From Escherichia coli (GTDB lineage: Bacteria > Pseudomonadota > Gammaproteobacteria > Enterobacterales > Enterobacteriaceae), in the NCBI RefSeq assembly GCF_044647545.1, contig NZ_CP172818.1: 64,000 nucleotides of DNA; one strand, given 5' to 3'. A program made the position numbers and the translations under genes. Of this stretch, positions 1-1,777 are shown in pieces (the first letter of the stretch is position 1; the number at the start of each line of letters is the position of its first letter). A model generated the notes under the pieces. That model ran no database searches, was not told where the DNA came from, and saw only the letters and a list, made by a program, of their open reading frames with translations.

Positions 1-735
1 GTGGAAACCAGCGACGGTGACGGCTATATCTACTGCGTGATTGAACATCAAAGTTCTGCAGAAAAGAATATGGCTTTTCGACTAATGCGCTATGCCACCG
101 CCGCCATGCAGCGCCATCTGGACAAAGGCTATGACAGAGTCCCGCTGGTGGTGCCGTTGCTGTTTTATCATGGCGAAACCTCGCCCTACCCATACTCACT
201 TAACTGGCTGGATGAGTTTGATGATCCGCAACTTGCCCGGCAGTTGTACACCGAAGCTTTTCCGTTGGTGGATATCACCATCGTACCTGACGATGAGATC
301 ATGCAACATCGGCGTATAGCTCTGCTGGAACTGATTCAAAAGCATATTCGCGACCGCGATTTAATCGGTATGGTCGACAGGATCACCACGCTTTTGGTTA
401 GAGGCTTCACTAATGACAGCCAGCTACAAACACTGTTTAATTATCTGCTGCAATGCGGCGATACCTCCCGTTTCACCCGTTTTATTCAGGAGATTGCCGA
501 ACGTTCACCACTACAAAAGGAGAGATTAATGACTATTGCTGAACGGCTACGGCAGGAAGGGCATCAAATTGGTTGGCAGGAGGGGAAGTTGGAGGGTTTG
601 CAGAAAGGCAAAGTAGAAGGTATGCATGAACAAGCCATTAAAATTGCCTTGCGCATGCTGGAACAGGGCTTTGAACGTGAGATTGTGCTGGCGACAACCC
701 AACTCACTGATGCTGATATTCCGAACTGTTATTAA
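1..735 (+). CDS. rpnE: Rpn (YhgA-like, transposase_31/PD-(D/E)XK) recombination-promoting nuclease, 5' end probably cut by the window edge (frame opens at nt 1 with GTG)
   Basis: ORF 1..735 translation; Rpn-family core ([11 protein letters not shown]...[18 protein letters not shown]...) paralogous to the rpnB product at 63053..63943; position upstream of rhmA matches K-12 yfaD (from memory). Confidence 0.8.
529..735 (+). CDS. putative internally initiated small protein comprising the Rpn C-terminal tail (RpnS-like), in frame inside rpnE
   Basis: In-frame ATG at 529 preceded by AAAAGGAGAGATTA (SD AGGAG); the same 46-nt SD+ATG block heads ypaA at 734..779. Inference; not demonstrated here. Confidence 0.35.
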
Positions 736-747
736 AAGGAGAGATTA

Positions 748-933
748 ATGACTATTGCTGAACGGCTACGGCAGGAAGGACACCAAATTGGCTGGCAGGA
801 GGGTAAATTAGAAGGCATGCATGAACAAGCCATTAAAATTGCCTTGCGCATGCTGGAACAGGGCATTGATCGTGACCAGGTGCTCGCGGCCACTCAGCTA
901 AGCGAAGCCGATCTGGCAGCGAATAACCACTAA
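748..933 (+). CDS. ypaA: Rpn tail-domain small protein, stand-alone copy of the rpnE C-terminal module
   Basis: ORF 748..933 (61 aa, [23 protein letters not shown]...) nearly repeats rpnE residues 177 onward; own SD AGGAG at 738..742. Confidence 0.7.
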   Translation: MTIAERLRQEGHQIGWQEGKLEGMHEQAIKIALRMLEQGIDRDQVLAATQLSEADLAANNH

Positions 934-973
934 TTAACACAGGCCCACAGCCGATCCCCATGGGCCTTTGATA

Positions 974-1777
974 TCAATAACTACCTTTTACGCGTGGCCC
1001 ATTTTTGCCTGATTTAAACATCGCCAGTCGTTGATCCAGGGCATCGCTGTAGAGCATCGTGTCAACGCCAACAGCGACAAAGTTCGCTCCCCACGCCAGG
1101 CATTGCTGCGCCATATCAGGAGCCACAGCCAGAAAACCAGCAGCTTTACCCGCAGCACGGATCCGCCGAATGCTGGTTTCAATAATTCGCTGCACTTCCG
1201 GGTGCCCGGCGTTATCCGGGTAGCCCAACGAGGCAGAAAGATCCGCAGGTCCAATAAACACGCCATCAATTCCTTCGACGCCGAGGATTTCGTCCAGGTT
1301 ATCCAGTGCCGTCTTACTTTCCACCTGCACCAACAGACAAAGCGAATCGTTGACGTGCGCCATGTAATTCTCAATGCGTCCCCAGCGAGCAGCCCGTGCC
1401 ACACTGGCCCCAACACCACGCTCACCGTAGGGAGGATAGCGCGTGGCAGACACCACCTGACGTGCCTGATCGGCAGTATCGACCATCGGGATCAGTAGAG
1501 TTTGCGCGCCAATATCCAGGACTTGTTTAATCAGCGACTTACTGGCTTCCACCGGACGGATCACGGGTTGGCTGGCATAGGGCGCTACCGCCTGTAGCTG
1601 GTGATAAAGATCCTGAATGGTGTTTGGCGCGTGCTCCCCGTCAATCAGCAACCAGTCATAACCGGAGGTGGCGGCAATTTCTGCCATATAAGAAGTAGTC
1701 GAGCTTAACCACAGACCAATTTGCACTTCGCCCTTGCGTAAACGTTCTTTAAAGGGATTGCTTAATAATGCGTTCAT
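974..1777 (-). CDS. rhmA: 2-keto-3-deoxy-L-rhamnonate aldolase (HpcH/HpaI aldolase family)
   Basis: ORF 974..2080 minus; recognised protein begins at internal ATG ([13 protein letters not shown]..., 267 aa), giving start 1777; the longer ORF overlaps rhmT. Confidence 0.85.

Follow-up and report, generated by a model that had tools for sequence, protein, structure and literature searches.

The window, a 64,000-nucleotide stretch of the Escherichia coli contig NZ_CP172818.1 (assembly GCF_044647545.1), opens inside rpnE (yfaD), which is truncated by the window edge and is entered at codon 68 of its 311 codons, and continues through the small gene ypaA to the convergent yfaU (Table 1). Strain FDAARGOS_497, in which rpnE, a hypothetical protein, and yfaU are annotated, matches the window at 100%. 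The rpnE product is recognized by the NCBIfam profile NF007418 (E=1.5e-165) and by TIGR01784 (E=4.5e-32), and the precomputed Pfam assignments place PF04754 and PF27070 on RpnE and PF27070 (HTH_Rpn_C) on YpaA. The residues reported as essential in RpnA (D11, D63, E82, Q84, R94, and PDDEI; Kingston 2017) recur in the Transposase_31 / PD-(D/E)XK body of RpnE, with E82, Q84, R94, and PDDEI lying inside the window and D11 and D63 present in the identical full-length gene of FDAARGOS_497.

Table 1. Features of the rpnE-ypaA locus, in window positions
Feature	Position	Strand	Basis or remark
rpnE (yfaD), 3' 244 codons, PD-(D/E)XK Rpn/YhgA-like nuclease (RpnE-L)	1..735	+	ORF; TAA stop 733-735
46-nt exact repeat, copy 1	515..560	+	in frame within rpnE
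Internal Shine-Dalgarno AAGGAG	517..522	+	6 nt before ATG 529
RpnE-S reading frame, 68 aa, intragenic small protein, candidate antitoxin	529..735	+	sequence; K-12 translation published
RpnE-tail array, four 12-nt units (16 residues), hypervariable 4-aa repeat	574..621	+	sequence
48-nt block, copy 1 (16 residues)	622..669	+	identical to 817-864
46-nt exact repeat, copy 2, heading ypaA	734..779	+	begins in the rpnE stop codon
Shine-Dalgarno AAGGAG of ypaA	736..741	+	sequence; ATG at 748
ypaA (= rpnE-Ss), 61 aa, free-standing Rpn C-terminal domain	748..933	+	ORF; PF27070; 12 nt past the rpnE stop
ypaA array, two 12-nt units (WQEG KLEG)	793..816	+	sequence
48-nt block, copy 2	817..864	+	identical to 622-669
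GC-rich hairpin between convergent ypaA and yfaU	941..967	.	terminator-like site on the minus strand

The tail of rpnE and ypaA are two copies of one duplicated unit, of about 219 nt in copy 1 and about 195 nt in copy 2, with a mean column identity of 85% between the aligned segments (window 500-737 versus 719-936). The earlier note had reported a 46-nt string, AAAAGGAGAGATTAATGACTATTGCTGAACGGCTACGGCAGGAAGG, both in frame inside rpnE and at the head of ypaA, and the exact-match search agrees with this, since the string has two exact copies, no further match at <=3 mismatches, and not a single match in any of 100 dinucleotide-preserving shuffles, the chance expectation being none. It comprises the Shine-Dalgarno sequence AAGGAG, 6 nt, the ATG, and 11 codons, and its second copy does start at the rpnE stop codon, at A734 A735 directly after T733. 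The 24 nt by which copy 1 is longer, described earlier as an insertion, are two additional 12-nt units of a repeat array. Downstream of the arrays lies a second perfectly identical block, of 48 nt, which is the longest identical run between the copies (P ~0.017 if the differences were randomly placed) and is likely to be a crossover zone, because a fusion allele found in one complete genome (L009), which has one tail only, joins the copy-1 array to the copy-2 C-terminus across it. The first 23 residues and a 16-residue core are common to YpaA and RpnE-S, and the C-terminal parts diverge as had been claimed, with a 21-residue RpnE end standing against IDRDQVLAATQLSEADLAANNH of YpaA.

The strong Shine-Dalgarno sequence that the earlier note placed directly before an internal ATG is found there, in frame with rpnE, and the same block is present in K-12. 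In K-12, Ribo-RET and Onc112 peaks have been published at the internal start of rpnE and at ypaA, and both RpnE-S and YpaA (RpnE-Ss) have been detected by SPA tagging (Meydan 2019; Zhong 2023, PMC10400941). The proposal that the tail can be translated as a free small protein agrees with these data, which also provide for K-12, with a positive outcome at both starts, the initiation-site profiling and tagging that had been suggested as checks; the literature on Rpn tails made from internal starts to which the earlier note refers exists and has the content stated there (Zhong 2023). The AAGGAG-6 nt-ATG layout recurs in an rpn paralog located at the opposite end of the window.

Strict and relaxed sigma-70 promoter scans returned no convincing site ahead of position 515 or ahead of position 748, and the duplication begins just 14 nt before the ATG of ypaA, so that ypaA would most likely be expressed from the transcripts of rpnE and of the internal rpnE-S, the support for the latter transcript being published K-12 dRNA-seq. 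The hairpin that follows ypaA folds on the plus strand at -12.1 kcal/mol (z = -2.2) and is a probable shared terminator at which the rpnE/ypaA transcripts would end.

As a separate ORF with its own Shine-Dalgarno sequence, directly downstream of rpnE and homologous to its tail, ypaA has the makeup of an RpnSs gene. Its standing as a diverged copy of the rpnE tail, put forward in the earlier note, is borne out by the sequence, and the derivation had already been published (Meydan 2019; Zhong 2023, PMC10400941). YpaA aligns to positions 244-308 of NF007418; a Pfam-A scan of YpaA with a library copy that apparently lacks PF27070 gave no significant match. Its AlphaFold2 model is helical at moderate confidence (pLDDT 73.5), and the best PDB match of the model is RpnA-S 7TH0 (Foldseek probability 1.0, 42% identity, and E=0.028 for a very short protein), with the sequence alignment breaking exactly where the repeat insertion sits. 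This fold match and the PF27070 assignment on both proteins place the tail in the three-helix RpnS fold (HTH_Rpn_C).

The hypervariable 4-aa repeats of Rpn tails, which lie in helix 1, have been described before (Meydan 2019; Zhong 2023, PMC10400941), and the length of the present locus changes among strains in 12-nt steps. Across a stratified strain sample, the RpnE tail carries 1 to 9 units and YpaA carries 1 to 6. The RpnE tail and YpaA have 4 versus 2 units in the window and 1 versus 2 in K-12, and among the 19 rank-sampled complete genomes on which the repeat-count figure is based the counts are equal in one and mismatched in 18; the unit counts of the two copies vary independently, without co-variation. 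Repeat class 1/6, in which ypaA has the array of strain group A, could suggest a movement of arrays from one position to the other, but it was dropped as evidence, because it is confined to metagenome assemblies (L032, L041, L042, L046, and L049) and because in isolates L047 and L048 this 77-aa "gene" proves to be the end of an rpnE that is disrupted and has a single tail. Class 7/6 (L043) and three further loci (L031, L044, and L045) were discounted as scaffolds with N gaps.

The two parts of the duplicated unit differ in their divergence. When the two copies of the window are compared with each other, dS is 0.16 and dN is 0 over the first 31 codons outside the repeats (the 5' two-thirds), and over the last 21 codons (the 3' third) dS is saturated at ~2.6 and dN is 0.38. 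The arrangement of rpnE and ypaA also occurs in E. fergusonii and in Escherichia sp. E4385 (cryptic clade), where the loci were found by searching for contigs that encode the YpaA variants of these organisms. By these comparisons the duplication is old and mosaic; a recent duplication is ruled out by the dS of the 3' third and the presence in E. fergusonii, and the exact 46-nt identity is no sign of one, since the copies are mosaic and the arrangement is common to E. fergusonii and the cryptic clade. Within E. coli, the two-tail junction is found in 3133 of 5426 complete genomes, about 42% being without it, and the single-tail alleles that were read all have the ypaA-type C-terminus; loss by fusion was also noted by Zhong 2023 (PMC10400941). 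Isolates L051-L057 carry 5-unit arrays in both copies, identical at 59 of 60 nt. An exact 32-mer scan of the genome contig collection yielded no matches, and the same 32-mer in metagenome contigs yielded 13 loci, mostly short or single-tail and hence hardly informative on pairing. This strain survey may partly repeat the alignments of Zhong 2023 (Fig. S3C or S6).

In the reading that we favor, with considerable confidence, this stretch is the E. coli rpnE-ypaA locus, which belongs to the toxin-antitoxin systems of the Rpn gene-within-a-gene type and has a second, free-standing copy of the tail, and YpaA is most likely a non-cognate paralog. The C-terminal helical domain of RpnE would also be made alone, with translation starting at the internal AAGGAG-6 nt-ATG (517-531), as RpnE-S, which, by analogy with RpnA, RpnB, and RpnC, would bind the identical domain of RpnE-L via its long first helix and keep the nuclease inactive. 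In this reading, ypaA would be an old, selectively maintained duplicate of the tail with its own identical Shine-Dalgarno sequence and ATG. The two copies would go on exchanging sequence through their identical 46-nt and 48-nt blocks, homogenizing the 5' two-thirds and, in many strains, deleting one unit so that the rpnE body becomes fused to the ypaA-type C-terminus, while the 12-nt arrays would grow and shrink independently in each copy. The published repeat-matching rule would make YpaA a paralogous RpnS-type protein with a different pairing specificity.

A more far-reaching form of this model, which we regard as speculative and rather unlikely, takes the two-tail locus for a specificity-switching device, in which YpaA is deliberately mismatched, recombination through the identical 46-nt and 48-nt blocks exchanges or fuses the arrays and C-termini of ypaA and rpnE and so changes the self-recognition of RpnE-L and RpnE-S in one step, and the free YpaA protein guards against, or pairs with, the recombinants. 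If this were true, the near-universal repeat mismatch between the neighbors would be selected and not accidental.

The alternative that survives best, to which we give slightly less credence still, is close to the suggestion of the earlier note that ypaA is a spare copy of the inhibitor: YpaA would serve as a redundant or backup inhibitor, acting in trans on the resident RpnE-L by binding to it and enlarging the antitoxin pool. Consistent with that are the segments held in common with RpnE-S, the expression of YpaA in K-12, the position of ypaA 12 nt past the rpnE stop, the scans having shown no promoter-like site in the gap, the purifying selection on ypaA, and the finding that overexpressed K-12 RpnE is non-toxic in cells that keep the chromosomal ypaA. 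Against it stands the repeat rule known from RpnC, in which a single-unit mismatch abolishes inhibition by RpnC-S (Zhong 2023, Fig. 4D, PMC10400941; commentary PMC10400984). A cognate antitoxin of the resident RpnE-L would be expected to have the same repeat number, but the counts differ here and in 18 of the 19 genomes, and they do not co-vary as those of an obligate partner should; the third helix and the C-terminal segment are, moreover, highly diverged (dN 0.38). Since inhibition in RpnC is lost with one extra repeat, YpaA is, by this analogy, probably not a cognate inhibitor of the RpnE-L encoded here, and the suggestion of a spare copy fares poorly. The repeat-matching rule was worked out with a single paralog, RpnC, and a single added unit, and its transfer to RpnE and YpaA may fail.

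The toxicity of RpnE, which the earlier note had assumed, is at odds with published results, as assays of toxicity, SOS induction, and recombination showed no activity of K-12 RpnE (Kingston 2017), and RpnE may therefore be no working toxin at all. Against the latter reading, every RpnA-essential residue is kept in RpnE, and the rpnE gene overexpressed in the K-12 assays still had its internal start (Kingston 2017). Toxicity and SOS induction by RpnL, and their block by RpnS, have been shown for RpnA, RpnB, and RpnC (Zhong 2023, PMC10400941), and anti-phage defense within the family for the plasmid-borne RpnP2 only. The published tests of antitoxin activity were made on RpnA, RpnB, RpnC, and RpnP2, and among the papers found there was none that tests YpaA against RpnE-L. 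PADLOC v2, which has no Rpn model, gave a sole match in the window that is weak and unrelated.

Less probable again is a model in which ypaA matters mainly as DNA, as a reservoir resembling a silent cassette, from which an array and a C-terminus are recombined into rpnE to alter the specificity of RpnE-L and RpnE-S, the protein being incidental. The variable array flanked by the identical 46-nt and 48-nt blocks, the fusion alleles that combine the copy-1 array with the copy-2 C-terminus (a loss seen by Zhong 2023 as well), the two-tail junction missing from ~42% of complete genomes, and the near-identical arrays at both positions in L051-L057 would all fit such a role. Against it, the ypaA frame runs intact from a conserved start to a stop in all 72 two-tail sequences parsed, its start lies 12 nt past the rpnE stop in every one of the 19 complete genomes in which the spacing was checked, and the protein is made in K-12; the orthologous pN/pS of 0.24 for ypaA (0.09 for the rpnE tail) likewise points to constraint at the level of the protein.

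That ypaA is a decaying, functionless gene fragment, as the PGAP pseudogene flags in most complete genomes inspected would have it (including FDAARGOS_497, "incomplete; missing N-terminus"), is highly improbable, and a pseudogene is ruled out by the intact frame, the pN/pS of 0.24, the retention of ypaA in E. fergusonii and the cryptic clade, and the published K-12 SPA-tag immunoblot, with newer PGAP runs themselves naming the product "Rpn/YhgA-type helix-turn-helix domain-containing protein". The flags present a practical annotation problem, in which an expressed small gene is called a pseudogene fragment.

The biology of the rpnE-ypaA locus is already published, and the new point is the usual difference in repeat count between the two copies. 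The locus illustrates the published principle that a toxin gene can encode its own antitoxin internally, a variable number of repeats determining which partners pair, and what is added is modest and of interest to Rpn specialists, namely that the free-standing copy almost never matches the repeat count of its neighbor. To this can be added that the copies are part homogenized and part ancient mosaic, that about four in ten E. coli genomes are without the two-tail junction, and that the single-tail alleles read are fusions. The repeat mismatch, the mosaic, and the fusions sharpen the question of the role of YpaA left by Zhong et al.

Among known systems, the closest is the rpnE (yfaD)-ypaA locus of K-12 MG1655, which is this very locus and agrees with it in gene neighbors (glpC, rpnE, ypaA, yfaU), in the internal AAGGAG-ATG and the 12-nt gap, and in the two C-terminal types IPNC(H/Y) and LAANNH, identity to K-12 being 95.9% over window positions 1-1000. 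The 311-aa RpnE with 4 units found here, versus 299 aa with 1 unit in K-12, is an allelic variant; YpaA, with 2 units in either strain, has M24/I40 here versus L24/F40 in K-12. The RpnA-L/RpnA-S, RpnB, and RpnC pairs have in common with RpnE the PD-(D/E)XK Transposase_31 body, an internal start in frame ahead of the helical C-terminal domain, and the 4-aa repeats in helix 1, and it is the RpnA-S structure that the YpaA model matches best. For RpnA, RpnB, and RpnC, toxicity and inhibition are demonstrated, whereas K-12 RpnE is inactive in the same assays, and RpnA, unlike rpnE, has no free-standing copy downstream.

The architecture of a tail copy that lies directly downstream of an rpn gene and arose from the tail of that gene is shared with rpnC-rpnC-Ss, which part of the E. 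coli strains carry (Zhong 2023, Fig. 2I) and which is an independent duplication in another paralog than rpnE. Stand-alone DUF4351 (PF14261) and HTH_Rpn_C (PF27070) small proteins are, like ypaA, encoded by separate genes for Rpn C-terminal domains, this label denoting a generic family with no functional information beyond the domain. A more distant parallel, cited by Zhong 2023, is provided by the TAEL repeats of the EcoR124I/II HsdS subunits, where, as in Rpn, a defense protein owes its specificity to how many 4-aa helical repeats it carries. The two are not homologous, and the HsdS repeats set the spacing of DNA half-sites, whereas the Rpn repeats set protein-protein pairing.

Over its first 1000 nt the window matches E. 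coli FDAARGOS_497, in which the gene order is glpC, rpnE, a "hypothetical protein" and yfaU, at 100% identity, and K-12 MG1655, whose locus is shorter by 36 nt, at 95.9%. Matches to NCBIfam NF007418 (E=1.5e-165) and to the Rpn-family model TIGR01784 (E=4.5e-32) identify the long ORF as rpnE (yfaD), and the full-length protein of this strain (RpnE-L, 311 aa) lacks none of the residues found essential in RpnA (D11, D63, E82, Q84, R94 and PDDEI). YpaA aligns to positions 244-308 of NF007418, and the precomputed Pfam annotation places PF27070 (HTH_Rpn_C) both on YpaA and on the C-terminus of RpnE. The AlphaFold2 model of YpaA is helical (pLDDT 73.5) and has the RpnA-S crystal structure 7TH0 as its best PDB match (probability 1.0, 42% identity, E=0.028); the sequence match to 7TH0 is interrupted precisely by the repeat array, leaving two segments. 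rpnE clearly encodes an Rpn-family nuclease body followed by a helical tail with its own ribosome-binding site, and ypaA is clearly another copy of this tail with an initiation site of its own.

Features of the rpnE-ypaA locus and of the second rpn paralog
Feature	Position	Strand	Remark
rpnE, 3' part	1-735	+	ORF open at window start; stop TAA 733-735
46-mer copies	515-560 and 734-779	+	exact match
48-nt blocks	622-669 and 817-864		perfectly identical; 3' of the repeat arrays
ypaA	748-933	+	61-codon ORF
Hairpin	941-967		common to ypaA side and convergent yfaU
Second rpn paralog	63053-63943	-	296 aa; 63% identical to RpnE
Its internal start	SD 63226-63221, ATG 63214-63212	-	AAGGAG-6 nt-ATG; in frame, before 53-aa tail

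Both copies of the 46-mer consist of AAGGAG, a 6-nt spacer, an ATG and 11 codons; these are its only exact occurrences, the rest of the 64 kb holds no near match, and 100 shuffles gave none. The first ATG, at 529, shares the frame of the long ORF, and the second 46-mer begins inside the stop codon of that ORF. The duplicated unit spans ~219 nt in the rpnE tail (copy 1) versus ~195 nt in ypaA (copy 2), with a mean column identity of 85% over the aligned segments (500-737 versus 719-936), and the 24-nt difference in length is accounted for by copy 1 having two 12-nt units more than copy 2, whose array is WQEG-KLEG. The C-terminal 21-22 residues are unlike between the copies. The feature is thus real, and the earlier note had read its general nature correctly as a duplicated Rpn tail with its own SD and ATG, including the exact repeat resuming at the rpnE stop, the internal in-frame start, the 24-nt insertion and the C-terminal divergence.

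The feature and its interpretive frame have already been published, including the gene names. Meydan et al. (2019, bioRxiv 10.1101/520783) reported in-frame internal starts marked by Ribo-RET peaks in all five rpn genes, and a close likeness of the rpnE internal-start product to the independent gene ypaA. Zhong et al. (2023, PMC10400941) published Onc112 and retapamulin profiles of rpnE-ypaA, detected both the internal-start product RpnE-S and YpaA (renamed RpnE-Ss) via chromosomal SPA tags, and found that every rpn gene has an internal transcription start site, so that the initiation profiling and tagging proposed in the earlier note had already been done for K-12. The same study showed that RpnA-S, RpnB-S and RpnC-S each inhibit the RpnL of their own gene, that RpnS proteins vary from strain to strain in the 4-aa repeats of their dimerising first helix, and that one added repeat abolishes the action of RpnC-S unless RpnC-L has the repeat too; RpnE-Ss was described as originating from RpnE and as liable to loss by deletion or fusion. 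According to a commentary on Zhong et al. 2023, a mismatch in repeat number leaves no RpnL-RpnS complex and no inhibition in trans. K-12 RpnE was inactive with regard to toxicity, SOS induction and recombination (Kingston et al. 2017). The literature search turned up no experiment in which RpnE-S or YpaA was tried as an inhibitor.

The single testable refinement of this published picture concerns repeat number: in most cases, and in the window strain as well, YpaA does not match the count of its neighbour rpnE. Counts of 12-nt units, paired by locus as rpnE tail/ypaA, were 4/2 in the window, 1/2 in K-12, and 6/2, 6/1, 6/3, 7/5, 9/2, 9/5 and 2/5 in other mismatched classes, the matched classes 3/3 and 5/5 being rare. 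The counts were equal in one of 19 complete genomes of a rank-stratified sample. The YpaA variants with the highest numbers of collection blocks belong to a mismatched pair at every locus read, namely 1/2 for the K-type variant (17,920 blocks) and 6/2 or 4/2 for the window type (11,677 blocks), and the variant of the matched 5/5 class is listed in only 99 blocks. Among the loci read there was no sign of co-variation of the two counts. Four scaffolds with N gaps were left out of these classes, as was a 1/6 class (L032, L041, L042, L046, L049) present only in metagenome assemblies, in which a 1-unit rpnE tail precedes a 6-unit ypaA array otherwise typical of rpnE, an arrangement that may be genuine or a product of chimeric assembly.

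By homology, RpnE-S would bind the identical domain of RpnE-L and thereby restrain it. Because the duplication begins just 14 nt before the ypaA ATG, and a scan for a promoter-like site for ypaA found none, ypaA is probably expressed from the transcripts of rpnE and internal rpnE-S, which most likely end at the shared hairpin. The repeat-matching rule, established on RpnC with one added unit, suggests that a YpaA with two units against four, and with a diverged third helix, is unlikely to pair with the resident RpnE-L or RpnE-S. The earlier proposal that ypaA is a second, diverged spare inhibitor therefore stands as regards the diverged tail copy, but a role as spare inhibitor of RpnE appears doubtful. 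A more apt description of YpaA is that of an RpnS-type paralog with another specificity; it could serve as an orphan partner for recombinant alleles, have its own role as a small HTH-like protein, or be chiefly a recombination substrate.

The identity of the 46-mer is not a sign of recent duplication, which is ruled out by the split in divergence between the copies (dS 0.16 and dN 0 over the first 31 non-repeat codons; dS ~2.6 and dN 0.38 over the last 21) and by the occurrence of rpnE followed by ypaA in E. fergusonii and Escherichia sp. E4385. Since, in addition, the longest identical run exceeds that expected from random placement of differences (P ~0.02), the exact 46-mer is to be read as the 5' part of an old duplication that has been homogenised or kept under constraint. 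Direct evidence that one copy has converted the other comes from the isolates L051-L057 (e.g. LT903847.1; arrays ~1015-1074 and ~1246-1305), one of only two matched classes seen, whose 5-unit arrays are identical at 59 of 60 nt. Downstream of ypaA in E. fergusonii (L058, L059) and E4385 (L060), the place of yfaU/yfaV is taken by a MoCF_biosynth gene (yfaY side) and a short HTH fragment of IclR type, so that the rhamnonate genes are missing and rpnE-ypaA is kept.

In orthologous comparisons the rpnE tail had a pN/pS of 0.09 and ypaA one of 0.24. The ypaA frame begins at a conserved start and is intact to its stop codon in all 72 two-tail sequences parsed, and its start lies 12 nt after the rpnE stop in 19/19 complete genomes checked for spacing; ypaA is hence a maintained gene. 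PGAP treats it as a fragmentary pseudogene ([quoted passage not shown]) in the majority of complete genomes inspected (L002-L007, L084-L095), including the window's own strain, and only K-12-like and a few further records carry it as a true CDS; its newer PGAP name is "Rpn/YhgA-type helix-turn-helix domain-containing protein".

A junction query (copy-1 C-terminus, stop, copy-2 start) matched 3133 of 5426 complete E. coli genomes; in the remaining ~42% only its second half matched, indicating one tail. Nearly all single tails read have the ypaA-type end LAANNH. The complete genome L009 (NZ_CP024886.1, 1529-1762) joins a 6-unit array typical of rpnE to this end, the structure expected from a crossover in the identical 48-nt block; L008 and L010 likewise join a copy-1-type array to LAANNH, and these three alleles are evidently crossover products between the copies. 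A third C-terminal type, …ADLAPLSLQ or …ANLAPLSLQ, occurs beside IPNC(H/Y) and LAANNH (locus L012, Ga0209547_100002; protein variants P0084, P0095, P0096). The rpnE body is disrupted or frameshifted and the tail frame intact in L047 and L048 (GCA_013424455.1, GCA_013424425.1; ~250-412) and in L068 and L069 (GCA_016586755.1); in the last of these assemblies the locus is found close to either end of a single 5.19-Mb contig, probably through overlap in a circular assembly. In L019 (OEQM01000798.1; tail from 137, minus strand) a 5-unit tail runs past MLEQG into unrelated coding sequence, the 130 translated codons being free of stops, which is due either to a rearrangement or to a chimeric metagenome contig. 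The YpaA variant P0029 (76 aa, NCBI E. coli, 5.12-Mb contig) has an 11-aa internal duplication in helix 2, a kind of length change other than the 4-aa repeats.

The second rpn paralog of the window, probably rpnB/yfcI, resembles rpnE in its internal AAGGAG-6 nt-ATG layout, but differs from it in having neither 4-aa repeat units nor a free-standing tail copy downstream.
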